Source of the DNA: a virus
Length of the DNA stretch: 64,000 nucleotides
Strand: one strand, 5' to 3'
IMG/VR virus record: IMGVR_UViG_3300038312_000193
In this document: positions 2,196-58,130 of the stretch, one piece after another
Layout of the letters: each line of letters begins with the position of its first letter
How positions within the stretch are numbered: the stretch's first letter is position 1
Program-made: the position numbers and the translations under genes
Notes under the pieces: generated by a model
What the model was told of the DNA's origin: nothing
Databases searched by the model: none
Seen by the model: only the letters and a program-made list of their open reading frames with translations

Positions 2196-2450
2196 TTATA
2201 CCTCCTTTTCTATCGCCCAATCTGTCCATGAATCTCTTTCAATCACAAATAACTGGTTGTTAATCTTTATCTCTATTCCGTCTTTTAACGGACAATCTGG
2301 TTCACCTGTAAATGTATTCCAATGATTGACATAAACACCTTTTGAATATCTATCATTTATATGTCTACTGTACAATCTGCTTGTATTCTTATCTTTGTAT
2401 ATCTCCCTGCAATAACCTTCTTGGTTTTCGATTTTGATTAAATCTAACAT
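2196..2450 (-). CDS. hypothetical protein
   Basis: AAGGAG RBS before MLDLIK. Confidence 0.7.
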   Translation of the reverse strand: MLDLIKIENQEGYCREIYKDKNTSRLYSRHINDRYSKGVYVNHWNTFTGEPDCPLKDGIEIKINNQLFVIERDSWTDWAIEKEV

Positions 2451-2594
2451 TCGCATACACTCCTTATATACTTTATTTATATTATTAATATGATTAATAT
2501 ATAATAAAATACATACTGTCAACATGTAATTATTTTGATTTTTATACTTCATATTTAAAGGGATGTTACAACATCATAACACCCCTTATAACTT

Positions 2595-3623
2595 CTATGC
2601 TATTTCTTGTTCTCCTTGCACCTGTTCTTGTTTTCCTTGCCATTCTTCAAATAATTCCTGTAATCCATTTAACCTTCCATTAACTCTTTCTTTTTTTGTT
2701 GATCCTGCGCCACAATTATTTTTATAAGCATCTCCTGGTTTACTGTTTTTACTGTACCATGTAATGAAGTTTGTAGATTCATGTTTACTCTTTTGGGTAT
2801 TTAAAAATCCTACCATAGACGTTATGTTAATCTTAGTGCAGAATTTATTATATTTATTGTTAAAGCTATCTGCTATTACTGTAAATAATTCCTCTGTGCG
2901 GTTTAATACTTCATCTGTTATTGTGTTGGTCACAAAGAATTTTTCAACATCCTTTGCTGCAAAGGTACAAAAATCAAGTCCTGATACTAAGATAATTGAT
3001 TGAAGTATAGTCATTTGTTTATCTGATTTCTTTATTGCTCCTGGTGTAAAGTGAGCAACATCGGTAAATAGTTTATGTTCTGTTATCATTCTCTTAACAA
3101 ATTCTCGTACATTTTTCTTAGCTGATACTAAAGCAAGATGCTCTTTACTTACGACTTTACCATTATTCAAACGATAAAAAATATCATTTACGATTGATTC
3201 TTCATCATCATTATCGTCAAGTTCGATAAGTTTAAAGGCCAACATGAAACTTTTGATTTCATCCTGCACTTCTTCTGGTAGTTCTGAAAATTTCTTACCA
3301 GAGATATTGAATTTTTCACCTGTAGATTCAAGTTTGATTTGTGGGAGTTCTGTAAGCTGCCATTCATCGTTAATAAAAGAGTGAATAATAGTAAGACGTT
3401 GGAGGCCATCAATAATACTGTAAGTATTCCCTGATTCTTGTTTCTCTTGTATGGCATAAATATCAGGCACAAACATTTCTAAAATAGAATGGATTAACAA
3501 TGACTTATCTTCATTTTTCCATTGTCCTGCTGGTCTTTGCACAGGATTATCAAAAACTATAGTTCCTTTATTAATCATTGTGCTAACCTGCTTTACTGAC
3601 CATGATAAACTTTTTCTTTGCAT
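2595..3623 (-). CDS. DUF262 (ParB/Srx-like, GmrS N-terminal) domain protein
   Basis: QR..W, LIHSIL, IIDGLQRLT and IFYRLNNG motifs; own promoter. Confidence 0.85.
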   Translation of the reverse strand: MQRKSLSWSVKQVSTMINKGTIVFDNPVQRPAGQWKNEDKSLLIHSILEMFVPDIYAIQEKQESGNTYSIIDGLQRLTIIHSFINDEWQLTELPQIKLESTGEKFNISGKKFSELPEEVQDEIKSFMLAFKLIELDDNDDEESIVNDIFYRLNNGKVVSKEHLALVSAKKNVREFVKRMITEHKLFTDVAHFTPGAIKKSDKQMTILQSIILVSGLDFCTFAAKDVEKFFVTNTITDEVLNRTEELFTVIADSFNNKYNKFCTKINITSMVGFLNTQKSKHESTNFITWYSKNSKPGDAYKNNCGAGSTKKERVNGRLNGLQELFEEWQGKQEQVQGEQEIA

Positions 3624-3662: not shown

Positions 3663-3691
3663 ATTTTATACCTTTGGTTTCATGTTGTCAA
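3663..3691 (-). promoter_or_regulatory. sigma-A promoter
   Basis: TTGACA-17-TAAAAT. Confidence 0.75.
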
Positions 3692-3722
3692 CATTAAAAT
3701 AAGAATAAACGATAATTATTTT

Positions 3723-3932
3723 TTATCCTGTTGGTTCAAGATCATGCGAAATACACCAGGAACAAAATACATCTATATTAGTTCCTATTCCTTGTTGCTG
3801 TCTTACTTGTTGGTAATTATTCCAATCACAATACCAACTACCAGCTTTGTAATAGGTCTTAATTCCGTTTACATAGCGGATTTTTAGATTACTAGTTGAC
3901 TTTGTTTTGTTGCTCTTGTTTTTTGTTCTCAT
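3723..3932 (-). CDS. hypothetical protein
   Basis: AAGGAG RBS. Confidence 0.55.
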   Translation of the reverse strand: MRTKNKSNKTKSTSNLKIRYVNGIKTYYKAGSWYCDWNNYQQVRQQQGIGTNIDVFCSWCISHDLEPTG

Positions 3933-4030
3933 TTTATACATCTCCTTTTTATTTTTTGTATTTTAATCCTTCTTAATATGTCGGCTCTGTCATTGTCGGC
4001 ACATTAAGCAGGATTAAACCTGCTTATAAT

Positions 4031-4231
4031 TTATATTATTGTTATGTCAAAATTCCACTCAATACAATCCTTTGTTAAATATCCATTAATATGATCTCCT
4101 TCTCTTCCTGTTAATTTCCAGCCTATTTGTTTAAAAAACTCATAGTATTTATAAAAATATTCATTATTTGACTTTTTAAATATTTCCCATTTTTTACCGT
4201 TTGCTTTATCTGTAATAGTTTTAATCAACAT
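4031..4231 (-). CDS. hypothetical protein
   Basis: GAGGAGG RBS. Confidence 0.7.
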   Translation of the reverse strand: MLIKTITDKANGKKWEIFKKSNNEYFYKYYEFFKQIGWKLTGREGDHINGYLTKDCIEWNFDITII

Positions 4232-4279
4232 TTTTTAACCTCCTCTTATAACTCGTTACCTAATTGTCATTTGGTTTAA

Positions 4280-4570
4280 TTATATTATTTGTTTTGCTAA
4301 TGTTTCCGTTAATGGGAATCTAACTTGCTTAAATACATTGTCGTAAAACCTTGGATAATTAATATAGTCTGGAATAATCTCGCTACCATCAGGTAATAAA
4401 ACTGATTGACTATAACTGCCCAATGACTTGATGCATTCCTCAATGCTGTTATAGACTTTTATACAATCAAAAGTATTGTGTTCAATCTCATAGGGTGATC
4501 TGTTATTCCATGCCCAATCATTAATTTCTCTGATCCGCATTTTACCATCATAAAAAGCTTGATAATGCAT
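4280..4570 (-). CDS. hypothetical protein
   Basis: AGGAAGG RBS. Confidence 0.7.
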   Translation of the reverse strand: MHYQAFYDGKMRIREINDWAWNNRSPYEIEHNTFDCIKVYNSIEECIKSLGSYSQSVLLPDGSEIIPDYINYPRFYDNVFKQVRFPLTETLAKQII

Positions 4571-4836
4571 TATTATCCTTCCTTTCCTTCTCCTAAAATT
4601 TTACTGTACATGAAATTTGCTTTCTATCATGTTATTTTAATGTAATTAATGCCATTCGATTAAGATCAATTGTTAATATATTGAAATGATCTAGTTTTTT
4701 AATTAAATCTGCATCATACCAGATAGGTTCTCCGTTTTCTTCAATCTCTTTTGTTATTCTGTTAATCCAATATTGCTTATTAAATACTTTAGTTTTCAAT
4801 TTGTTCAACTCCTTATTTGTTTAATTCGTTATATTG

Positions 4837-4865
4837 ATTATAAACCCTGCTATTCATATTGTCAA
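4837..4865 (-). promoter_or_regulatory. sigma-A promoter
   Basis: consensus TTGACA-17-TATAAT. Confidence 0.8.
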
Positions 4866-4992
4866 TATGATTTTGCTACTATCTTTATATTTTTTATTTA
4901 ATTCTCTGAAAAATAAATGCCATTATTCAGGCATTCACAAAACGGCAAATAGTCATAAAATCAATCTTTTGTAATGTTCGGGAATTGTTCTG

Positions 4993-30019: not shown

Positions 30020-30130
30020 ATAAAAATAGGTTGAGAGTCGCTATCTTAACTGACAAGAGTGGGATACCTTACACCCACTCTTTTTTATTATAAAAATGTA
30101 AGGGGTAATACTGGTAAGGAGTGTTGGAGA
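30020..30130 (+). promoter_or_regulatory. structured endonuclease leader A
   Basis: GTCGCT-loop hairpin; second loop CCTTACA complementary to TGTAAGG (30097) and to SD GTAAGG (30114). Confidence 0.7.
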
Positions 30131-31060
30131 ATGGGTAAGTGTTTAACATTTGAAGAAGTGAAATATTATATTGAAAGTTTAGGTTATATTTTAATTGATA
30201 TAATATATATTAATATTTTTTCAAAAATAACTTTTAAAGATATAGACGGTTTTTATTATTATTTACATATAAGTAATTTAAAAAAGGGATTTATTCCCAG
30301 TAAATTTCACAAATCTAATCCTTATACAATTCAAAACATAAAACTATGGTGTAAATTAAACAATAAACCATTTGAATTATTAAGTGAAGAATTTAAAGGT
30401 GCAAATAAAAACCTTAAATGGAGATGTTTAAAAGAAGATTGTGGAGAGATATTTGAAGCAAACTGGAATAAAATCATAATAGATAGAGGTTGTCCTTTTT
30501 GCGCAGGACATCAAGTAGGTTTATCTAATTGTCTAGCAACTAAAAATCCAGAACTTGCGTCTGAATGGCATCCAACCAAAAATGATGATTTAACTCCATA
30601 TGATGTGACTTGTGGAAGTAAAAAATACGTATGGTGGAAATGTAAAGAGTGTGGTTTTGAATGGGATGCAAGTATTGTTAATAGAAGAAATAATGGTTGC
30701 CCAAAATGTGCTGAATCAAAAGGTGAAAAAAGAATAAGTAAATGGTTGAATTTAAATAATATATCCTATTGTAGAGAATTTGTTTTTAATAATTTATTAA
30801 GTGATTTAGGAAATCCATTGAGATATGATTTTGCTATATTTGATAATGTAGATAAAACACAATTAAATATGTTAATTGAATATGATGGGAAACAGCATTA
30901 TGAATGGGTTAAAGGCTTTTATACAAAACAAGATTTTATAAAAATACAATATCACGATAAATTAAAAAATGATTATTGTATAAATCATAATATAAAATTA
31001 TTAAGAATTCCTTATTGGGATTTTGATAATATTGAAGAGATTTTAGATAAGGAATTCTAA
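30131..31060 (+). CDS. free-standing zinc-ribbon/Vsr-DUF559-like putative homing endonuclease
   Basis: CPFC, EWHPTKN, CPKC, ESKGE, RYDF, IEYDGKQH, LLRIPYW. Confidence 0.85.
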   Translation: MGKCLTFEEVKYYIESLGYILIDIIYINIFSKITFKDIDGFYYYLHISNLKKGFIPSKFHKSNPYTIQNIKLWCKLNNKPFELLSEEFKGANKNLKWRCLKEDCGEIFEANWNKIIIDRGCPFCAGHQVGLSNCLATKNPELASEWHPTKNDDLTPYDVTCGSKKYVWWKCKECGFEWDASIVNRRNNGCPKCAESKGEKRISKWLNLNNISYCREFVFNNLLSDLGNPLRYDFAIFDNVDKTQLNMLIEYDGKQHYEWVKGFYTKQDFIKIQYHDKLKNDYCINHNIKLLRIPYWDFDNIEEILDKEF

Positions 31061-31582: not shown

Positions 31583-31693
31583 TAGAAGAGAGGTTTTTAG
31601 GGGTCGCTCCCCTATTCTCCGTACCCTCTCTTCTATTTTTATTTAAAGGGTTAGTACGGAGAAATAAAAATGTACGGAAAGAGGATGATAAAG
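31583..31693 (+). promoter_or_regulatory. structured endonuclease leader B
   Basis: 11-bp outer stem, GGGGTCGCTCCCC, TTCTCCGTAC complementary to GTACGGAGAA (31654) and GTACGGA (31672). Confidence 0.75.
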
Positions 31694-33007
31694 ATGCTAT
31701 TAACAAAAGAAGTTGAGGTTCAAGTAGTTGGAGGTACTTTAAAATACTATAGATCATTGGGTTATGATGTAAAGTGTAATGATAAAATATTAGTTAGTGT
31801 CTCAGATTTAAAGAAACGTTCAAAAGAAATGGTAAAAGTACAATGTGATGATTGTGGTAAAGTGTTTGATTTTCATTTTGATGCTTATCGTAAATATAGA
31901 GATGATTTTATTAATTGTAAATATCAATGTAGAGATTGTGAAATAAAAGAAATATGGGATAGGGTTAAAGATGAATGTGTTAATTTGAATTTTACTTTAA
32001 TTAGTGATATATCACATTATAAAACACATAAAAGTGAAGTTAAATTTATTTGTAATAATCATAAGGATTATGGAATTCAAAAAGTTACAGTTAATACTTT
32101 ATTAGTTAAACATTGTGGATGTAAATTATGTGCTAATGAGAAAAAAGCGAAATCTAAAGTATTAGAATTTGAGTTAGTTAAATCTAAATTTGATGAAGTA
32201 GGATATATTTTATTAGAAACAGAATATATTAGTGCAAAAACTCCGATGAGATATATTTGTCCTAAACATCCTGATATAATTCAGAAAATAACATATGATA
32301 AACTAAGTCATGGGCAAGGTTGTAAATATTGTGGATACGAGAAAATAGGTAAACATTTTAGACATTCATTTGAATATGTTTGGGATTGTTTTAATGATAA
32401 AAATTTAATCCTTATAGATGATGACTATAAAAATGACACACTTCCTTTAAGATATATATGCAAAAAGCATAGAAATAAAGGGATTCAAACAATTACTTTT
32501 AGTAGTTTAAAGGTAAGTGATTTTGGTTGTAAATATTGTGCCATAGAATATAGAGCATCTTTAATGAGTAAAGGTGGTGTAACCCCTTTACATAATTATT
32601 TACGAGAAAGAATTAATTCTTGGAAAGAAGATAGTATTAAGAATTATCATTACAAATGTGTATTAACGGGTGGACGATTTGATGTGATTCATCATTTATA
32701 TGGATTTAATATGATTTTATTAGAAACATTAGATAACTTACGTTTATCAATTCATCCGCAAGTAGGTTTATATACAGACAATGAATTATTATTAATTGAA
32801 CAAGAATGTTTAAAGTTACATTATAAATATGGATTAGGTGTATGTTTGTGCAAACCTTTACATAATTTATTTCATAAATTTTATTCTAAAGGAGAAAATA
32901 CTCCAGAACAATTTGAAGAATTTAAACAAAGATATTATAATTTTGAATTTGATGATTTATTAGACAATAAATATAAATATAAGAATATCCTGTCTAAAGT
33001 TAGTTGA
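31694..33007 (+). CDS. free-standing repeat-array HNH endonuclease
   Basis: three C..H/C..C repeats; IHHL...GVCLCKPLHNLFH HNH-type C-terminus. Confidence 0.85.
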   Translation: MLLTKEVEVQVVGGTLKYYRSLGYDVKCNDKILVSVSDLKKRSKEMVKVQCDDCGKVFDFHFDAYRKYRDDFINCKYQCRDCEIKEIWDRVKDECVNLNFTLISDISHYKTHKSEVKFICNNHKDYGIQKVTVNTLLVKHCGCKLCANEKKAKSKVLEFELVKSKFDEVGYILLETEYISAKTPMRYICPKHPDIIQKITYDKLSHGQGCKYCGYEKIGKHFRHSFEYVWDCFNDKNLILIDDDYKNDTLPLRYICKKHRNKGIQTITFSSLKVSDFGCKYCAIEYRASLMSKGGVTPLHNYLRERINSWKEDSIKNYHYKCVLTGGRFDVIHHLYGFNMILLETLDNLRLSIHPQVGLYTDNELLLIEQECLKLHYKYGLGVCLCKPLHNLFHKFYSKGENTPEQFEEFKQRYYNFEFDDLLDNKYKYKNILSKVS

Positions 33008-39883: not shown

Positions 39884-41254
39884 ATGTTTGACATAAAGAG
39901 TATTAAAGTTGAAGCACAAAATGTAGAAGTTAATTCTGCAATGAAGAAAACTCAACCTAAAAACGAAGGAGTAGAAATATTCTCTGCTATTTGTACTGGT
40001 AAAGATTTAAGTAGATATGGTAAAAAAGTTGATTCAGTTATGGCATATATGACAAATTTAGGACAAAAAGCAGTTGATGGAGATATCCAGGCAAAAGCCG
40101 AAATAAATGCAATTAGAACTCTAATGATTGAAGCACCTTTGGTAAAAAGATTAAATATTTTTGATTTTATGGGTGAAAAAATTAGTGTTGGTTTCGATGA
40201 AGAAGTAAGATTTAAGGTTTATCAACTTCAGGGAACTAAATCTAGTACTCAGGCTAATAGTGGTAGTTTCCCGTTTGCAACTTATAATTGGAGAACCCAA
40301 GTAATGGATGAATTTAAGACTATTACTGGTGGTATTTTAGTTGATTATAGAGAAGTTGCATCTGGTAATACTGATGCTATTAATGTAGCAAACGAGCAAG
40401 TTATTACTGATATGTTAAATCAGATGTTTTATCAGGTATTGGTTGCTTATTACAATGGTATTAAAGGTGCTACTAGTTTGAAAAATTTTGTTGAAGCATC
40501 AGGTATAACTAAATCTGCTCTTGACGCAGTAATTAAGAAAGCACGTAGATTTGGTAATTTAACTATTACTGGTGATTATTCTGTAGTTTCTCAACTTGAA
40601 GATTTTGTTGGATTTACTACTACTACTAATACAGTACAGTTCTCTGAAGCAGTTATGGAAGAAATACGCAAAACTGGTATGCTGAAATTCTATAGAGGTT
40701 TAGGAGTTGTTGAAATTCCTAATACTTATAATTTGACTGAACTTAATAGTGGTGCAGATTTCTTTGAAACTTATCTGCCTGAAGGTTTACTTTTAGTATT
40801 GCCTACTGGTGCAATTAGTCCTTTGAAGATTGGTGTAAAGGGTGGTTTAACTTCATTGTCTGCTACTGATATTAATCTTAAATCAGAAGTCACACGTTTC
40901 GATATGGAATTCGGTAGATTTTGTGCCGCTTAATACAGTAATGTATTAATGATAATCCCTGAAAAAATCTGGAACCCTAAGTCGTAATTTGATATGGGAA
41001 TCAGAGGTGAAGGTTAATTTTCAAAGATTAACCAGCCGCAACGCATACGGATTGAAACTACAATGTAGAATATAATATCCGCAAGAGGCAGGGACATCCC
41101 ATGTGGATGAAAAGATATGCTGAACTTATAGGAAACTATAAGAACTAGAGGATAAAAAACCTTTAGGATAACAAAATTGACAGAATTAATAAAAGAGTAT
41201 ATACCTATGGTTGGGTTAATATCTGATTCAGATTATGCCGTAGATAAAAGATAA
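39884..41254 (+). CDS. major capsid protein, spliced: join(39884..40915,41180..41254), 368 aa
   Basis: position and size; frame restored as ...RFDMEFG|TELIKEYIPMVGLISDSDYAVDKR*. Confidence 0.85.
40916..41179 (+). ncRNA. group I intron, ORF-less, 264 nt
   Basis: exon ends in U; P1 CGGU/GCCG; P10 UUUUGU/ACAGAA; P3 UCCCUG/CAGGGA; P7 GCAUA/UAUGC; P9 hairpins; terminal G. Confidence 0.9.
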
Positions 41255-41364: not shown

Positions 41365-42468
41365 ATGTCTAAAAAACTTACGTATGAATATGTAAAAAAT
41401 TATATTGAGCAATTTGGATATAAATTAATTAGTATAGAGTATTTAAATGCTCATCAACTTTTAGAAATTGAATGTGATAAAGAGCATAGATATTTCGCAA
41501 AATTTAATAATTTTAAATCAGGTAAAAGATGTCCAGAATGTGCAAAACTTAATAGAGGTAATAATAGAAGATTGTCATTTGAATTTATTAAAAGTGATAT
41601 AGAATCAAATGGAATTTTAAAATTATTATCGGATAATTATAAAAATAATACTACTTTATTAACTATTAGATGTTTACATGGACATGAATTTAATATTAGA
41701 TATTGTGATTTAAAAAGAAACCATATACAATGTCCTATATGTAGGAAAGAACAAATTGCTAAAGATTATGCGTTTACTTATGAAGAAGTTAAAACGTATA
41801 TTGAAAGTCAAGGTTATGTATTATTATCTACAGAATATAAAAACAATACTATCCCATTGTTAGTAAAATGCCCTAATGGTCATATTTACTATGTCAAATA
41901 CAGTAATTTTAGAGATGGTAAAAGGTGTAGGATTTGTTCTATGAAAGAAGCAGGATATAAAAAAAGACTTACTTTTGAACAAGTTAAAAAATATATTGAA
42001 TCTTTTGAAGGATATAAATTATTATCTACTGAGTATAAAATTGCCAGTAGTAAATTATTAATTAAATGTCCAGAAAATCATATATTTGAATGTTCTTTTA
42101 ATAAATTTAGAGATGGTCAAAGATGTCCAATTTGTAAGGAATCTAAAGGTGAACAAAGAGTAAGAGAATATCTTGCCAATAACAATATACCATTTAAAAG
42201 ACAGTATATATTTGAGGATTGTAGAAATATTGAACCATTAAGATTTGATTTTGCGGTGTTTGATTCTGAAAAGAATTTAGTCAAATTAATTGAATATGAT
42301 GGTGAGTTTCATTATTTACCAATAGAAAGCAAGAGTAAATTAAGGTATCAACAAAAATTAGATTCAATCAAAAATAATTATTGTCAAAATAATAATATAA
42401 TATTATTGCGTATCCCCTATTGGGATTTTGATAATATTGAAAATATCTTATTAAAAGAAGTTAGTTAA
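41365..42468 (+). CDS. free-standing repeat-array Vsr/DUF559-like putative homing endonuclease
   Basis: four ~65-aa repeats, then ESKGE, LRFDF, IEYDGEFH, LLRIPYW. Confidence 0.85.
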   Translation: MSKKLTYEYVKNYIEQFGYKLISIEYLNAHQLLEIECDKEHRYFAKFNNFKSGKRCPECAKLNRGNNRRLSFEFIKSDIESNGILKLLSDNYKNNTTLLTIRCLHGHEFNIRYCDLKRNHIQCPICRKEQIAKDYAFTYEEVKTYIESQGYVLLSTEYKNNTIPLLVKCPNGHIYYVKYSNFRDGKRCRICSMKEAGYKKRLTFEQVKKYIESFEGYKLLSTEYKIASSKLLIKCPENHIFECSFNKFRDGQRCPICKESKGEQRVREYLANNNIPFKRQYIFEDCRNIEPLRFDFAVFDSEKNLVKLIEYDGEFHYLPIESKSKLRYQQKLDSIKNNYCQNNNIILLRIPYWDFDNIENILLKEVS

Positions 42469-46972: not shown

Positions 46973-48280
46973 TTGAAAAAATTAACATATGAAGAGGTAA
47001 AACAATATTTTGAATTATATGATTATACATTAATTTCAACTGAATATATAAATAGTTCTAAGAAATTATTAACATTTTGTCCTTGTGGTCATAAATATGA
47101 AGTTTCATACAATAAATTTTCACAGGGTAAACGATGTACGATATGTCAAGGAATTAAAAGATATACTTATGAAGAAGTGAAAGATATTTTTAAAGATAAT
47201 GGATGTGAATTATTATCTACAGAATATATAAACAATCATATTCCATTAAAATATAAATGTTCTTGTGGGAATTATAGTGAAATACGTTTATATAATTTTT
47301 TAATTGGCGAACGATGTAAATTATGTGGAATGCAAAAAACTAAAGACAAACAAAAACATAGTTATGATTATGTAAAAGATAGATATGAAAATAAAAAATA
47401 TATATTATTATCTGATAAATATAATAATTACCATGAACCTTTAGAATGTATATGCCCTAATGGACATCATATAGAAAAAAGTTTGGCTTCATTAGATTTT
47501 GGTTATGATTGTTATATTTGTGCTGATCAAAATTTAAGGTTAGATTATACATATTTAAAATCATATTATGCTAGTTGTGGTTGTGAATTATTAACTACTG
47601 AAGAAGAATATTGTGGAGTTGGACATAATAATTCACTTGAATTTAGGTGTTCATGTGGTAATATAACTCAAAATAGTTTTTATAATTTTAAAAACGGTGA
47701 AAGATGTTGGGAATGTGCAAAGAATAAAAAGGTTCAAACTAATTTAATTAAATATGGTGTAGAACATACTTTATCTGATAATGAGGTTTGGTTAAAAACA
47801 AGAAAAACTTTATATAAGAATGGCAATGTTCCAAGTTCAACCCAACAAGATTATCTTTATAAAATATTTGGCGGAGAGTTAAATTATTTAGTTGAAAATA
47901 TTAATGTAGATATATTATTAGATAATTTAATCATTATTGAATATGATGGATCGGGTCATGATTTAAGTGTTAAATATTGTAGTATAACACAAGAACAATT
48001 TAATAAAAAAGAGATAAGAAGAAGTTATTTTTTAAAAAATAAAGGTTATAAAATAATTCGTATCATTTCAACCAAAGATAAACTTCCCTTAGATGATACC
48101 TTACTTTTAATGTTAGATTATGCTAAAGAGTATTTATCTACAAATCATTCGTGGATTCATTTTGATATAGATAATCAAAAAATAATAACATCTCAATATA
48201 TAATTAATGTTGATTATGGTAAATTACGTAAAATCAAAAGTAAAGATATTGAAGATTATAAACAATACGTAAGTTTATAA
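46973..48280 (+). CDS. free-standing repeat-array Vsr/DUF559-like (EDxHD-type) endonuclease
   Basis: four C.CGH/N...RC..C repeats; NVDI, IIEYDGSGHD, GYKIIRI. Confidence 0.85.
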   Translation: MKKLTYEEVKQYFELYDYTLISTEYINSSKKLLTFCPCGHKYEVSYNKFSQGKRCTICQGIKRYTYEEVKDIFKDNGCELLSTEYINNHIPLKYKCSCGNYSEIRLYNFLIGERCKLCGMQKTKDKQKHSYDYVKDRYENKKYILLSDKYNNYHEPLECICPNGHHIEKSLASLDFGYDCYICADQNLRLDYTYLKSYYASCGCELLTTEEEYCGVGHNNSLEFRCSCGNITQNSFYNFKNGERCWECAKNKKVQTNLIKYGVEHTLSDNEVWLKTRKTLYKNGNVPSSTQQDYLYKIFGGELNYLVENINVDILLDNLIIIEYDGSGHDLSVKYCSITQEQFNKKEIRRSYFLKNKGYKIIRIISTKDKLPLDDTLLLMLDYAKEYLSTNHSWIHFDIDNQKIITSQYIINVDYGKLRKIKSKDIEDYKQYVSL

Positions 48281-50762: not shown

Positions 50763-50872
50763 TATATTATTTATAAATATTTAAAAATTTAATATCTTAA
50801 AATTCATCAGAAGTGGGATATATCCACTTCTTTTTTTGTTGTCTATTTTTAAAAGAAAGGAAGTGGATATAT

Positions 50873-53800
50873 GTGAGTGATGATATTGTAATCCGAATAA
50901 AAACTTTATTAGATAAAGCAACTCCAGCAGATATTAATAAAGTAAAATCAGATATTGAACAACGAGTTAATCCTAAAATAAAAGTAGATGTTGATAGTAA
51001 AGGTTTAGATAAATATAAAGAAAAATATGTACAAATTGAAAATGCTGAAGCAAAAATTACTGAAAAAACTAAGGAATGGACAAAAACTAATGGTGAAATA
51101 GTAAAGCAAATTGATAATATAAAAGCTGGGACAAATGAGGTTACTAGAAGAGTTACAGAAACCACTACTAATTATAAGAAACAACGCGCAGAATTAGAAA
51201 AAATTAATGCAGAACAGTCTAAATATTGGTCACAAAGAGTTAAAGAAACTGTAGGTGATATGACAAAGAAACCAGATGAACTGGTTAAAATGGCTGAATA
51301 TTATGAGAATCTTGAAAAAACCAATTTAGAAACTATTAAAAATGCACAAAACAAAAACTTTAATGAAGCTAAAGATCATTTGACACAGTTAAGTAGATTA
51401 AGAAAAGAATATCATAGTTTAGATAATAAAAATACTGAACAAGCAAAAGAATTAACTAAGCAAATATCTTATCACCAAGGACAATATAATAATATTATTA
51501 GAAGAAAAATTGATATTGGTGAAAAAACAAAAATCGAAGGAATAGAAGCAGAGAAATTAAATCAACTTGAAAAAGTTAGAGAACAAACATTACGTAATAT
51601 TAATAATATAAAAGCAATAAATACAGATAAGAGTAATGCACAACAGCAAAAACAAGTTGATGATTTTAACAAAAGAAATATAAATGCTATTGATTATCAG
51701 ATACAACAAAGACAAATAGAATCACAACAATTTTCTAAAGCATTACAAGCAAAAATGCTACAAGAAGTTGAAGAAAAGAAAATAACATCAGAATTACAAA
51801 AGCAAAATATTGCACAAGAAAAAATGCTTAATACTATACGTGGTATGCGTGGTATAAACGGAGCATTTATTGTTGGTGATAATTTAAAAGATTTAAATAA
51901 CTTAGAAAATAAAATTAAAGGTTTTAATCCATCTGATAAAGATTTTGTTCAAAATATGCGTAATGCTCAGTTAGAACTTCAAAGAATAAATACATCAATG
52001 GGTATTTATAAAAAAGAGGTTCAAGATGCAAGTAAGTTTACAAATGTTTTTGGTCAGAGCATATTTGAAGCAGGTAAGAAATTTGCGTCCTGGCTGGTCA
52101 TTGGAAATACCATCATGGGAGCCATTAGAGTAATTCGGGATGGAATTCAATTTGTAATAGACCTTGACAATGCTATGAATCAGTTGCGGATAGTAATGAA
52201 TTTGACTAGTGATCAAGCAATTGAATTAGGTAGGAATTATAATTCTCTCGCAAAAGAAATGAGTGTAACAACTACAGAGATTGCTAAAGCAGCAGTTGAA
52301 TTTGCAAGACAAGGTTTATCCTTAAGTGAGATGGATGATAGACTTCGTAATACTATAAAATACGCTAAGATTTCAGGAATGGAGTTCCAAGAAGCAGCAG
52401 AGATAATTACTGCTAGTGTCAATAGTATGGGTGTGGGAACACAAAGAGCAATTGATATATTTAGTTATATGGGTAAACAACATTGCCCCCTTGTAGCGTG
52501 AGTTACAAGTGAAAATTTGGCTATAACGGTGAAACTCCTGAGAAGGACAATACCGTGGGAAGACTATTTGTGATTAGTAATAATCGTACAACCATATAAA
52601 TCAGGGGTGATTATATGGTTGAATATATATGTGATTATTGTGGTAAAACAGCAAAGAAAAGACCAAGTTATATTAAAGAACATAATTTTTGTTGTAGAGA
52701 ATGTTATCATAAATATCAAAGTGAATTTTTAAGAGGAGAAAATAATAAAAATTCTAAACCAAAGAATATATATTATTGTGCTAATTGTGGCAAAGAAGTG
52801 CCAATGCTTAAAAGTCAAGCAAAAAATAGGAAAAATATATTTTGTTCTAAACAATGTAGATTTGAATATGATAGTAAAGTATTTAAAGGCGAAGGAAATC
52901 CAAATTATCGGAGAGGTAATATTGAAATACAATGTATATATTGTGGTAAAAAGTTTAAACGTCCAGCTTGGGAAGAAGGTAGAGCAAAATATTGTAGTAA
53001 AGAATGTAAGAATAAATATTGGAGTGAAGTATTAAGTAAAACACCAGAAAATCAAAAACGTCTTAAACAACAAGGTGTAAATACTAAATTAAAACAAAGA
53101 AATAAATTTACTAAACCTGAGTTAATTGTGTATGAATATTTTAATAATATAAATGTAGAGTGTATTCCGCAATATCCTATGTGTAATAGATTTGTTGTGG
53201 ATTTTTTTATACCTTCTTTTAATATAGTTGTTGAAGTATTAGGAGATTATTGGCATGGCAATCCTTCAAAATATCCAGAGGACAAATTAACAGAAAAACA
53301 ATTAAAGACAAAAATTAAAGATGAATTTAAATTGAATTATCTTTCAAAAGAGGGATATGAAGTACATATGATTTGGGAAGATGATATTTATAAACGATTA
53401 GAGAATACTATGAAATTTATTAAATGTAAATTATAAATATGGTTGTATATTATTATTTAATCACAAATAGAACCCGTAACGACTACGTATCATAATAGTA
53501 ATATTATGGTCACGCCAAACATCTATAATACCCCTTTATAGATGAAGATAGAGTCTGATCTACACGTATAATCTAAAAACGAAGGTGTAGAAGTAGGAAG
53601 AAATTCCTACTCGCCATAATTAGTTTTATGGTCAGTAAGCGAAAGCTGAAAGTAACAGTTTGGATGCAACCGCGACTGGAGCCGATGAAATTGGTAGATT
53701 TTGCCGTTTAATATAGAAATATATTAAATTATTAGTACGGAATTAAGCAAGGAGGCTGAGATGCTAACTTGAACCGAAGGCTAAATGTAAAAATTTAGTC

Positions 53801-56800
53801 AGGGGCAGAGCATAGAGAGTGAAACTGTTTATTTTAACAGAATATAATCTCTCCAAGAGTCCGTACCACCTGACCAGATTATGCTGAAGGTGAAAACATA
53901 TGCCGAACTTACAAGAAATGAATTGTAAGAACTAGATGATAAAAAACTTCTAGGATAACATAATTGAGAGCCCTTCAACGCGTCGGTGGAACCGCTGGTG
54001 CGCTTAACGTAAACTTTGAAAAACTATCTTCATGGATAGCTATTATTTCCTCTCGTACAAGAGAATCCGCAGAATCTATAGGTAATAGTATGAAAACTAT
54101 TCTTGCACGTATGCAAAATATGGTTGAACGTGGATATGATGAAGAAAGTGGTGACAAAGTAAATAATGTAGCAAAAGCTTTAGCATCAATTAATGTTCAA
54201 CTTATGGATTCAGAAGGACAGTTTCGCAATCTAGGGACAGTAATGGATGAAGTTGGTAGTAAATGGGATTCTTTGGATTCTAGACAAAAAAGTTATGTAG
54301 CTACTGCAATGGCGGGAGTTCGCCAACAAAGTAGATTTTTAAACCTCATGGAAGGTTATGCTGACTCCGTAGAATTATATGAAGAATCCCTTAATGCTGC
54401 TGGGACAGCCAATGAAAAATTCGGAATCTGGCAAGAAAGTTCTCAAGCTAAATTAGAAAAATTTAAAGCAACACTCCAAACTATATATCAAACTTCTTTT
54501 GACACGGGAACAATAAAAGATATTATTAATTTTGGAACAAAATTACTTGATGTAATTAGTGATTTGCAAGAAAGTGGAATTGGGTTAAAAGAAGTAATAA
54601 TTGCTCTTACTACTGTATTTTTTATTTTCAATAATACAGCATTAAATAATTTTTATAATTCAATAGTAAATGCTCCTGCTAATATCATGAAATTAATAGC
54701 GTCATTAAATGGTTTAAATATTGCTATGAAAGCAACTACTATTTCTACTAATTTATTAAAAATAGCAATATCTACTTTTATACCATTTGCAATTATTACA
54801 GGTATTACCTATTTAATTCAAAAACTATATGAATTAAAAAATGCTAAAAAAGAAGTCCAAGAAACATTTTCAAATTCTCTTTCAACAATTCGAACTAATG
54901 AATCTGAAATTAAAAAAGCAAAAGAATTACAAACAGAGTATGATAAATTAAAAAATAAAACTAGTTTAACTAGTGATGAAAAAGAAAGATTGAAAAATGT
55001 TCAAAATGAATTAGTTAAAACATTTCCAAATTTACGATATCAACTAGATGCCGAGGGAAATGCGTTAATTGATAATACTCAAGCAATTTCAGATAATATT
55101 AAAGCTAGAGAAGATGAAGTAAATAGGTTAAAGGAAAATCTTGCTAAAGATTTTGAGATTTCTGGCAATGCTTATCGTGAAGATTTAAAAGTTAAACAAA
55201 AAGCATTAGAAGAAGAAAAAGCCTTTAGAGATCAACAATTAGAATTTATTAAAAATGCCGAAAATTCCGATATGTCGAAAGGCGCAAAACAAAGATATTT
55301 AAAATCTCTAAATACAGCATTACAAGAATCTTCTGCTAGAATGACAAAATTAAGTCCAGAAGTTGAAGAATTATCTAAGAAAATAGATTCTTTAGCATTA
55401 TCATATTTGCAAGCAAGTGATAAGTTTAAAGAGTTTGATACAACTACTTTATATAGTATTATTGACTTATTTAATACCCTATCTGGGAAAAATCCTAAAT
55501 TAGACTTTTTTAATTTTATTGATAAGATTGATACTAGTAAATTAAATGATTTTCAAAATGCTTTAAATGTTTTTAAAAACTCAAATCAAACCAATAGTGA
55601 TATAAAAACATTAAATAATTCTTATCAACAACTTTATAATCATTTAGTTGATATAGCACATCAAGGCAAAACTACTAAACAAGAAGCTGAAAATTTAGCA
55701 CAAGGTTTTTTAAAAACTATTGCTCCCGTAGAATCAGCACAAGTATCTTTATCTAAATTTCAATCTGCTATCCAAACTGTTGCTTCTGCTACTACAAAAT
55801 CAACTAAAAGTATTATTTCTGCTTTTGGAATTTTAGGCATTAGCATCAATAAAGAAGTTGCAAATATTTTATCAGGATATATGGGGTTAGTAGCAGGAAT
55901 ACAATCTGTTGCAGATGCTCATAATGTTATAGCAAAAATTGCTAATGATGTTACTGAGGGTGGAAAAACTACTGGTATGGCAGATACATCTTATAAAACT
56001 AGTTTAGTAACCACTCCTTTAATTAATTTAGGTAAATATTATGATGAATTAAAGAAATTACAAAAATCTATCAATAATAATCCTAGTGGTGGTGGTGGAG
56101 TAGGTGGCGGTTCCAAAGATAAATCTTCTTCATCATCTCAAGCAGCCGAAAAGGAGCTTTACGAATCAAAAGAGTATTCCAATGCCTTATCTGAAATAGA
56201 TAAACAACTCTCCATCTTAAACGCAGAAAAAGAAAAACTTGATAAAACATCCACTCAATATCAAGATAGTCTCAGAAAAGAAATCACCCTACTCCAGAAA
56301 AAACAAGACCTCGCTCACGCAGAAGCAGATTCCCTTCGCAAACGTAAAAATGATAAACTTTGGGAAATAAATCAAATAGCAGGAGCAGATTACTTTTCCC
56401 TCTCAGACACTAAACGTCAATCTATATTTGATTCTTTATATAATCCAAAGAAAAATGAAAAGCAAAAATACTTCAATGATCTGCTTAAAGATTTTGATGA
56501 TTTATCTAAACGTATTGATGATTGTCAAGCGTCTTATAGGGATTGGCAAGAAACTATAGATTCACTTAATTATGAAGTTGTAACAACTACAATTGAAAAA
56601 TTTGATGAAAATATTAATATATTTAAAGAGGATTTAGATTCTGTACAATCAGATTTAGAAAAATTGACTTATGGTACAGATGATTATAATTTTAAATTTA
56701 AAGAGCAAGTAGACTTAAATGAAAAATATATTCAAGAATTGCGCAATAAACAAAGTTATCTTCAACAACAAATTGCTAAAACTCAAGATTATAGTCTTGC

Positions 56801-58130
56801 TCAAGAAGAATTAAATACTAAACTGCGTGAAACTAATAGATTGTTGAAACAAGCACAAGAAGATGCTTATTATAGTATTGTTGCAGATATAAAACGTGAA
56901 GAACAAGAAAGATTAGATAGTTTAGAAAGACAATTAAAACGCCAAAAAGAAATTGCAGAAGCTAAAATCGAATCCTATCAATCTCAAATTGATGCACTTG
57001 AAGAAAAAGCTGAAAAAGAAGATATAATTGCAGAACGCCAAGAAAGACAATTAGAACTTCAGAAACTTCAACTTGAACTTCAAAAAGTACTTGATAACCG
57101 TGATGTTCAAATTCTGAAAAAGCAAGAAGATGGAAGTTGGCAATATGCCTATATAGCCGACCCTGATAAAATTGAAGAATTAAATAATGAAATTATAGAC
57201 AAACAAAAAGATTTCAGTGATTGGGAATTAAAGAATATTAGAGATGCTGAAAAGAAACAATTACAAGCATTAATTGATGGTGAAAATAAAAAGATCGATG
57301 CTCTGGAAGATTCTTTTAATGAACAGCAAGAAAATTTTAATACATTTTTTAATATGTTAGAGAATTCTTCTATAGAAAATCTTGATAATTTAAACACTAC
57401 TTTGGGTAATAAATGGGAAGAAATTTTACAAACTATAAAATCTAAAGTAGAAGCTATTTTAGCACAACAAGCTCGAATTAGTGGTTTGAGTTATGGAGGT
57501 ACTAGCGGAGGAAGTGGCGGCGGTAGTGATGTTAATGATGGATATACTATTTGGACAGGTTCAGATGGTAAAACTTATATAACTGCATCAGATTCAACTC
57601 ATGGGACTATAACAGAAGAATATCATGGAAGTAATTCGCCGGGTTCATATAATAATAATGGTACACCAAGAAGTAGTTCTTCTTCTTCAAGTTCTTCTAG
57701 TTCTTCGACAAGTAGTAATCAATATAAATATTTATCTAATCTTGCTAAGAATGGTGATTCTGGTCAAAAAGCATGGGCAAATGATCAGATAAAGAAAAAG
57801 AAATATGCTGATGGTGGAGAAACTGAGAAAACTGGTTTACATTGGTTAGATGGAGAACTTGGTAAACCAGAAAGAGTTTTGACGGTAGAGCAGACTAAAG
57901 GTTTTAATAAATTAGTTGATAATCTTCCTAATTTATTAAATAAAGTAGATTTATTAAAAAATATAACAAGTAATATTAGTTTGCCTGATTTTAATAATTT
58001 AGTGGGTAGAAGTCAATCTACAAACAATACAATTCATATTGATAAACTCGAATTTCCAAATATCACAAACCCTGAAGGTTTACAACAAGCAATACTTGAC
58101 CTTCCGAGGTTGGCATTACAGTATAAATAA
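50873..58130 (+). CDS. tape measure protein, spliced: join(50873..52474,53663..53695,53967..58130), about 1932 aa
   Basis: TP901-type TMP domain restored: DIFSYMG|DATATGADEIG|RALQRVGG. Confidence 0.9.
52475..53662 (+). mobile_element. group I intron with endonuclease ORF, 1188 nt
   Basis: P1 GGGU/GCCC, P3 UUUGGC/GCCAAA, R GUAACGACUA, S GAAGAUAGAGUC, terminal G. Confidence 0.9.
52615..53436 (+). CDS. intron-encoded zinc-finger/Vsr-like homing endonuclease
   Basis: three C..CGK...FCS..C repeats; TKPE, VVDF, EVLGDYWHG, IWEDDI. Confidence 0.85.
   Translation: MVEYICDYCGKTAKKRPSYIKEHNFCCRECYHKYQSEFLRGENNKNSKPKNIYYCANCGKEVPMLKSQAKNRKNIFCSKQCRFEYDSKVFKGEGNPNYRRGNIEIQCIYCGKKFKRPAWEEGRAKYCSKECKNKYWSEVLSKTPENQKRLKQQGVNTKLKQRNKFTKPELIVYEYFNNINVECIPQYPMCNRFVVDFFIPSFNIVVEVLGDYWHGNPSKYPEDKLTEKQLKTKIKDEFKLNYLSKEGYEVHMIWEDDIYKRLENTMKFIKCKL
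53696..53966 (+). ncRNA. group I intron, ORF-less, 271 nt
   Basis: P1 UGGU/GCCG, P3 GUACGGA/UCCGUAC, P7 GCAUA/UAUGC, terminal G; related to capsid intron. Confidence 0.9.

Follow-up and report, generated by a model that had tools for sequence, protein, structure and literature searches.

The 64,000-nt stretch of viral DNA recorded in IMG/VR as IMGVR_UViG_3300038312_000193 (hereafter, the window) contains a tape measure gene, in the region 50873-58130, whose coding sequence is divided into three exons by two intervening sequences that lie only 33 bp apart. All coordinates are positions in the window, and the gene, together with everything described within it, is read from the plus strand. Exon 1 (50873-52474; 534 codons) opens with a likely GTG start codon at 50873, just before which stands the ribosome-binding sequence AAAGGAAGTGG, and ends in TAT ATG GGT. 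It is followed by intron 1 (52475-53662; 1188 nt), which encloses an open reading frame (ORF) for a putative homing endonuclease, and then by a micro-exon of 33 nt (exon 2, 53663-53695) whose 11 codons specify DATATGADEIG. Intron 2 (53696-53966; 271 nt) has no ORF and leads directly into exon 3 (53967-58130; 1387 codons plus the stop at 58128-58130), which begins RALQRVGG. Every exon junction is in phase 0 and both donors finish in GGU. Without splicing, the exon 1 frame reads ...GKQHCPLVA and then meets a stop codon (52499-52501) nine codons into intron 1; the spliced product comes to 534+11+1387 = 1932 aa, and these frames would allow that full-length protein to be encoded only if both introns are excised. 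This layout had been proposed in the initial annotation, which called for in-frame junctions with identical GGU donors, a truncated protein from unspliced RNA, a product of about 1930 aa and a TTG overlapping the last splice site, and all of these features are present, every one at the position given for it (the TTG at 53964-53966).

Homology to intact proteins indicates that the exon pieces form one tape measure gene, with an agreement far beyond chance. The gene has the marks of its class, namely a PhageMin_Tail domain (PF10145), a very long protein and homology to annotated tape measure proteins. The Pfam profile is matched in two large pieces, at 37.5 and 50.6 bits (cut-off 33.2), with the C-terminal part of exon 1 covering positions 3-87 and exon 3 covering positions 99-201, such that exactly 11 profile positions (88-98), the size of the micro-exon, remain unmatched. 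Of the annotated relatives, Psychrobacillus phage Perkons is the closest; its tape measure protein (2439 aa, uninterrupted) aligns to the exons joined in silico with no gap over either junction (E 2e-111) and reads ...DVFSYLGDATATGADEIGVAFQKVGG... in the junction region (DVFSYLG-DATATGADEIG-VAFQKVGG). The exons are open and collinear with intact homologues across about 700 residues. As for the micro-exon, the peptide DATATGADEIG is carried unchanged by Perkons and by the metagenomic relatives L009, L010 and L011, while its DNA differs from theirs at 6-7 of the 33 nt, all of them synonymous. The proposal that it is genuine, for which homologous tape measure proteins lacking DATATGADEIG had been named as a refuting observation, is thus upheld in all four relatives, and its conservation marks the micro-exon as a real coding exon. 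Terminase and portal genes lie upstream of the tape measure gene, and tail and fibre genes lie downstream. A terminator-like hairpin (GC-containing, then a run of T) occupies 50810-50838, directly 5' of the ribosome-binding sequence and GTG.

For each of the intervening sequences, helices were set by window coordinates, and P3 and P7 were tested as explicit structures, since each RNAalifold consensus omits one of these two pseudoknotted helices. Intron 1, whose last base is G53662, can be folded into a complete group I core of the subgroup IA type. Its P1 (52471-52476/52483-52488) has 6 bp and includes the splice-site wobble U52474.G52485, and it is followed by P2 (52490-52496/52503-52509), P3 (52516-52521/53514-53519), P4 (52526-52530/52552-52556), P5 (52536-52539/52544-52547) and P6 (52564-52576/53458-53470), the last of which closes over the endonuclease ORF. 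Downstream of the ORF come P7 (53481-53485/53551-53555), P7.1 (53491-53497/53502-53508), P8 (53520-53528/53536-53544) and the helices P9 to P9.3, between 53560 and 53647. Covariation was assessed with six homologues from metagenomic tape measure loci, five of which keep the splice-site U.G, and among which the 3' end (...ACAGxTTG) is conserved; P1 and the terminal G are thus both in place. The 3' half (P7, P7.1, P8, and P9-P9.3) is 96.0% paired, compared to 30-42% in slid controls, with 23 of 43 pairs covarying, and the 5' half (P1, P2, P4 and P5) is 97.7% paired, compared to 34-50%, with 13 of 22 pairs covarying. P3 pairs at all six positions in each of three joined sequences, and compensatory changes are among them; P6 forms completely in the window copy, while 6-7 of its 13 aligned columns pair in the remaining two of the three. 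The segment between P7 and the 3' strand of P3 holds a single 7-bp hairpin, paired throughout, as befits subgroup IA.

Intron 2, which ends at G53966, has its own full set of helices. P1 (53692-53695/53703-53706) is shorter, with 4 bp including U53695.G53703, and is followed by P2 (53707-53715/53720-53728), P3 (53735-53741/53860-53866), P4 (53748-53751/53768-53771), P5 (53754-53756/53763-53765), P6/P6a (53774-53786/53793-53803), P7 (53810-53814/53899-53903), P7.1 (53815-53819/53849-53853), P7.2 (53825-53829/53836-53840), P8 (53867-53871/53888-53892), P9 (53908-53914/53923-53929) and P9.1 (53932-53936/53949-53953). On an alignment of 10 sequences, with 69 pairs counted over 15 helices, standard pairs fill 90.6% of cells, as opposed to 31-41% in controls whose partners were slid by 1-3 columns; 54 of the 69 pairs change on both sides, and none of 500 shuffles matched any observed measure. 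P7 pairs in 100% of cells and includes one covarying pair, P3 includes five, and the nested P7.1 and P7.2, again as in subgroup IA, are 100% and 94% paired with four covarying pairs each. A single register places U at position -1 and G at the intron end; the splice-site U.G is invariant in all seven homologues with letters at that position, as is the terminal TTG in the six full-length members of the family.

This terminal TTG (53964-53966) is in frame with exon 3 and is preceded, 8 nt to its 5' side, by AGGA (region 53952-53966), a combination at which gene finders begin a separate ORF. However, the AGGA and TTG fall within the P9.1 strand and 3' tail, which are conserved throughout this intron family, in unrelated host genes too, and their likeness to a translation start is therefore probably accidental.

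Both intervening sequences, on the strength of their splice-site U.G, terminal G, P1-P9 helices and P3/P7 pseudoknots with compensatory changes, are recognizable as group I introns of the subgroup IA type. By profile comparison and core sequence, they also belong to different families (here, family 1 for intron 1 and family 2 for intron 2): the two family profiles do not cross-match, each finding only its own intron, and the P7 sequences differ. The initial annotation had arrived at both assignments, as well as at the distinctness of the two cores, and the structures bear it out. All family-invariant columns are kept in both introns of the window. Other kinds of intervening element were considered and rejected, since an intein, a group II intron, translational bypassing or a twintron would be at odds with intervening sequences that are closed in the exon frame and that each form a separate, complete group I core; for a group II intron, they are moreover too short or wrongly structured.

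The ORF in the P6 loop of intron 1 (52615-53436) encodes a predicted homing endonuclease of 273 aa, composed of four Cys4 zinc-ribbon repeats and a C-terminal PD-(D/E)xK domain of the Vsr/DUF559-like type. The single protein gives weak, sub-threshold matches to Vsr, DUF559 and MTES_1575 and, likewise weakly, to PHROG families annotated as homing or HNH endonucleases; compared by itself with PDB sequences, it gave only insignificant zinc-finger matches, and a search of viral contigs recovered no relative. A large protein collection contained 47 other homologues, and a profile built from 34 of the family matched I-Bth0305I (3r3p) over profile positions 171-279 (E 1.9e-7) as well as Vsr (1cw0; E 1.8e-4). 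Among the 34 individual members, 17 match DUF559, 18 match MTES_1575 and eight match Vsr in Pfam. Residues D196, G210, D211, H214 and D236 are invariant in the family and kept in the window endonuclease, as are all family-invariant Cys, Asp and His residues, for which reason the gene looks intact. The exact protein is also recorded from contigs that reach 146 kb in length. At either end of this ORF lies a copy of the 9-nt direct repeat ATATGGTTG, one spanning the start codon (52613-52621) and the other immediately following the stop codon (53437-53445), and an upstream segment, CAACCATAT (52589-52597), can pair with either copy; one of these CAACCATAT/ATATGGTTG pairings hides the endonuclease start codon, and the other lengthens ribozyme helix P6.

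The distribution of introns among related tape measure genes fixes the intron boundaries, since individual introns are present in some relatives and absent from others. Perkons is without either intron. In L009, an ORF-less 443-nt homologue of intron 1 is inserted at YLG/DATATG (slashes denote junctions), and DATATGADEIG is contiguous with the downstream exon, there being no intron 2. L010 has neither intron and instead contains a family-1 intron of 1408 nt, with an ORF, situated 18 nt downstream (DATATG/ADEIG). Three further relatives that were found by way of the endonuclease (L017, L019 and L021) have an intron with a homologous ORF at the intron 1 site. Several relatives contain more than one intron: L017 has two family-1 introns with ORFs (2361-3563 and 3669-4932) separated by an exon of 105 nt, L021 has two introns (about 2360-3550 and 3710-3967) separated by an exon of 159 nt, and L011 has three (3296-3569, about 4115-4377 and about 4631-4915), one of family 2 and two that are short and family-1-like. 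The 33-nt exon in the window is the short end of the series that includes the 105-nt and 159-nt exons. With the three sites at 554, 560 and 565 included, and with L009, L010 and L012 taken into account, at least nine insertion sites are used within about 270 codons; the others in these relatives fall near spliced residue 423, after residues 589, 604 and 688, and after about residues 608 and 683. At every junction read in these relatives, U is the last base of the upstream exon and G the last base of the intervening sequence.

Nucleotide similarities of 70-84% connect intron 2 to unannotated gaps that split genes, including those for terminase, helicase, RNA polymerase and tape measure proteins, in phages infecting Listeria, Enterocloster, Aeromonas, Raoultella, Bacillus, Clostridioides, Streptococcus and Staphylococcus. 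When the region was compared with the phage collection by megablast, the sole match was 116 nt of intron 2 in Listeria phage LIS04; blastn of the 3' part of intron 1 against that collection gave no match. Four cases of family-2 introns could be delimited: in the tape measure gene of the Clostridioides phage LIBA6276 (L006, 1349-1628), within a codon or so of the intron 1 site; in the tape measure gene of Streptococcus phage MissB1 (L007, 1326-1623); in the large terminase gene of Staphylococcus phage PMBT8 (L008, 370-635); and in the RecD-like helicase gene of Bacillus phage PJN02 (L005, 513-1657). In the GenBank records of all four, the gene halves appear as separate coding sequences (CDSs) and the introns are unannotated.

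The window itself contains a second member of the intron 2 family. This paralogue (40916-41179, plus strand; 264 nt, no ORF), which the family-2 profile detects with an nhmmer E-value of 1e-39, interrupts another gene of the structural module (exon 1, 39884-40915; exon 2, 41180-41254) 24 codons before the gene end, exon 2 amounting to those 24 codons. Left unspliced, the host gene reads ...EFG-RFCAA followed by a stop, and when spliced it reads ...EFG-TELIKEYIPMVGLISDSDYAVDKR followed by a stop. The donor of the paralogue (TTCGGT/AGATTTTG) is very similar to that of intron 2, P3 differs between the two by compensatory changes, and a 74-nt stretch of the paralogue is 90% identical to Mammaliicoccus phages.

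The endonuclease and its intron have a history that departs from that of the genes containing them. Homologues that are 80, 72 and 62% identical to the endonuclease reside in family-1 introns at the intron 1 site; the tape measure genes around them share only 27-45% identity with that of the window. At the level of the ribozyme, intron 1 shares 84-89% identity with the introns of these distant hosts as opposed to only 66-75% with the intron of L009, whose tape measure protein is much closer to the window protein than are those of the distant hosts. Lateral homing would be expected to leave such a mismatch in divergence between an element and the gene that contains it, and the unit of intron 1 and endonuclease has evidently moved laterally between distant phages, presumably by homing. 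As we envision it, the endonuclease would cut intron-less tape measure alleles near YxG/DATATG during co-infection and thereby drive homing, which would account for the presence of this intron and endonuclease at one and the same site in phages that differ greatly. Intron 2, having no endonuclease gene of its own, presumably spreads by co-conversion with intron 1, 33 bp away, or through a free-standing endonuclease acting in trans; homing in trans has published precedent (PMC2790892). The phage is in any case heavily loaded with homing-type nucleases: four free-standing endonuclease genes (30059-31060, 31670-33007, 41365-42468 and 46973-48280) fall into PHROG homing families (phrog_559, 681, 9084 and 12131), and inspection by eye of the one at 41365-42468 shows zinc-ribbon repeats resembling those in the intron 1 ORF.

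Considering the locus as a whole, we think it very probable that the tape measure gene holds two independent mobile group I introns, inserted 33 bp apart in the most conserved part of the PhageMin_Tail domain. Both ribozymes would excise themselves, each employing a P1 U.G wobble at its GGU donor and a terminal G, and, because the 11 residues between them are conserved, a functional protein would be expected to need both splicing events. The pair is most plausibly an accumulation of selfish elements in a conserved target, the cost of which to the phage would be kept low by splicing, and nothing about it suggests to us a regulatory device. Several points weigh against this reading. Rfam covariance models match neither intron, whether the whole window is searched at the gathering score or 52300-54200 at E-values up to 10, and the only matches obtained (52581-52628) are chance ones, falling on the hairpin around the endonuclease start codon; because the direct structural analysis recovers both cores, we take this silence to reflect the limited sensitivity of the models for subgroup IA phage introns. 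The fifth P7 pair of intron 1 is an A/G mismatch in the window copy and in one homologue. Splicing itself is deduced from sequence features, and the activity and target of the endonuclease are assigned solely by its membership in a family.

An alternative that bears on the protein product is that the micro-exon is skipped as the chief splicing outcome, or as a regulated one, with exon 1 joined to exon 3 to form an in-frame protein that is shorter by 11 residues and serves as the working protein or as a second isoform. This could come about if intron 2 used the end of exon 1 as its donor, or if the two introns acted as one unit, and it is a plausible reaction in chemical terms: both donors are GGU, all junctions are in phase 0, and the guide of intron 2 is predicted to pair about equally well with the end of exon 1 (-3.0 kcal/mol) and with that of its own exon 2 (-2.9 kcal/mol). 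Skipping has been described for two exons of similar size, one of 23 nt in Twort orf142 and one of 34 nt in the 23S rRNA gene of Coxiella (PMC10136302), and an exon of the SIOphi DNA polymerase gene is reported to be skipped in 47% of transcripts (PMC11878797). However, the start of exon 3 pairs poorly with the guide of intron 1 (+1.5 kcal/mol), and two introns of different families would not readily form one hybrid ribozyme. Furthermore, the 11 residues, which occupy conserved positions 88-98 of the Pfam profile, are identical in four intron-poor relatives and have sustained only synonymous changes. Because a skipped product would be missing the most conserved motif of the domain, it is more likely to be a by-product than a useful isoform, and a functional isoform seems unlikely by this reasoning; as the main or regulated outcome, we regard skipping as improbable. 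We give similarly little credence to a broader conjecture, that the order and kinetics of splicing by two close, unrelated ribozymes set tape measure output, with regulated skipping of the 33 nt yielding a second isoform or a dominant-negative protein that tunes the assembly or timing of tails, or, alternatively, that the introns confer mutual immunity, each destroying the endonuclease target of the neighbouring site.

The remaining alternatives do without splicing altogether. If the introns were decayed relics within a tape measure pseudogene of a defective phage or prophage remnant, the lack of an Rfam match and the P7 mismatch in intron 1 would be accounted for, but every other helical pairing of both cores is intact in the window copy, no family-invariant column has been lost, and the three exons have stayed open and collinear with intact homologues. 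The endonuclease keeps its invariant Cys, Asp and His residues and recurs with its exact sequence on the long contigs mentioned above, and the surrounding module of terminase, portal, tail and fibre genes is complete; decay is thus a very remote prospect. Still harder to credit is the expression of the gene in pieces, in which exon 1 and exon 3, the latter read from the TTG at 53964, would each yield a polypeptide of its own and the two would then assemble, so that splicing would be unneeded. The position of AGGA 8 nt upstream of this in-frame TTG, and the practice among annotators of related phages of calling such parts separate CDSs, would accord with this arrangement. Yet both motifs belong to the P9.1 strand and 3' tail of the intron family, the micro-exon is perfectly conserved despite having neither a start codon nor a ribosome-binding site, and both introns retain a complete ribozyme structure under covariation. 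Cumulatively, we continue to favor two self-splicing mobile introns as the explanation of the locus.

As a practical matter, gene finders call two unrelated ORFs and an endonuclease in this region and miss the 11-codon exon, and Rfam misses both ribozymes. The locus provides a well-delimited example of group I introns gathering in a conserved segment of PhageMin_Tail, with clear presence and absence among relatives, and it is a possible substrate for examining whether an exon between two unrelated ribozymes is included or skipped. The locus raises no new question: tape measure genes with several introns, micro-exons flanked by group I introns and the skipping of exons have all been published.

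Among the nearest counterparts are the tape measure genes of prophages in the Bacillus cereus group, in which group I introns (TMP-IVS1, IVS2 and IVS3a/b) occupy three sites (Tourasse and Kolsto, 2008; PMC2504315). As in the window, those introns are of subgroup IA, lie in a conserved segment of the tape measure gene, can number several per gene, and include some with an endonuclease gene and some without; related introns there fit neighbouring sites through changes in P1, and different introns share the same region. The present case differs in that its host belongs among large, Perkons-like phages, in that its introns are only 33 nt apart, and in the number of sites used, which is at least nine among the relatives considered here as opposed to three in the B. 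cereus study. Multiple introns also occur in the tape measure gene of Vibrio phage ICP1, which has four exons and three introns, one with a homing endonuclease gene, and whose splicing was established by RNA-seq and reverse-transcription PCR (Barth et al., 2023; PMC10448857); the same study names the tape measure gene as a frequently interrupted gene. Unlike the system described here, ICP1 infects a Gram-negative host, its endonuclease is of the HNH-3 type rather than Vsr-like, and its splicing is proven.

With respect to the micro-exon, the tail tube gene orf142 of Staphylococcus phage Twort contains three group I introns and an exon of 23 nt (Landthaler and Shub, 1999, as described in PMC10136302 and PMC11878797), and is likewise a phage tail gene in which a very short exon is situated between two group I introns, with skipping observed. 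The introns flanking the Twort exon are close relatives (IA2), whereas those in the window are of different families, and both splicing and skipping have been demonstrated in Twort, whereas the present introns are known from sequence alone, from which we infer their splicing. The 23S rRNA gene of Coxiella burnetii has an exon of almost the same length as that of the window (34 nt) between two unrelated group I introns of different subgroups, with skipping seen (per PMC10136302), although it is a bacterial rRNA gene and not a protein-coding gene of a phage. The endonuclease, for its part, resembles I-Bth0305I (3r3p, a 'mobile intron protein'), which is likewise encoded by a group I intron and with which it shares a C-terminal nuclease domain by profile match, the single sequence alone falling below significance; unlike I-Bth0305I, the N-terminal half of the window endonuclease consists of four Cys4 zinc ribbons. 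Set against these systems, the tape measure gene described here is a modest, tidy and real example of the intron pile-up already documented in tape measure genes.

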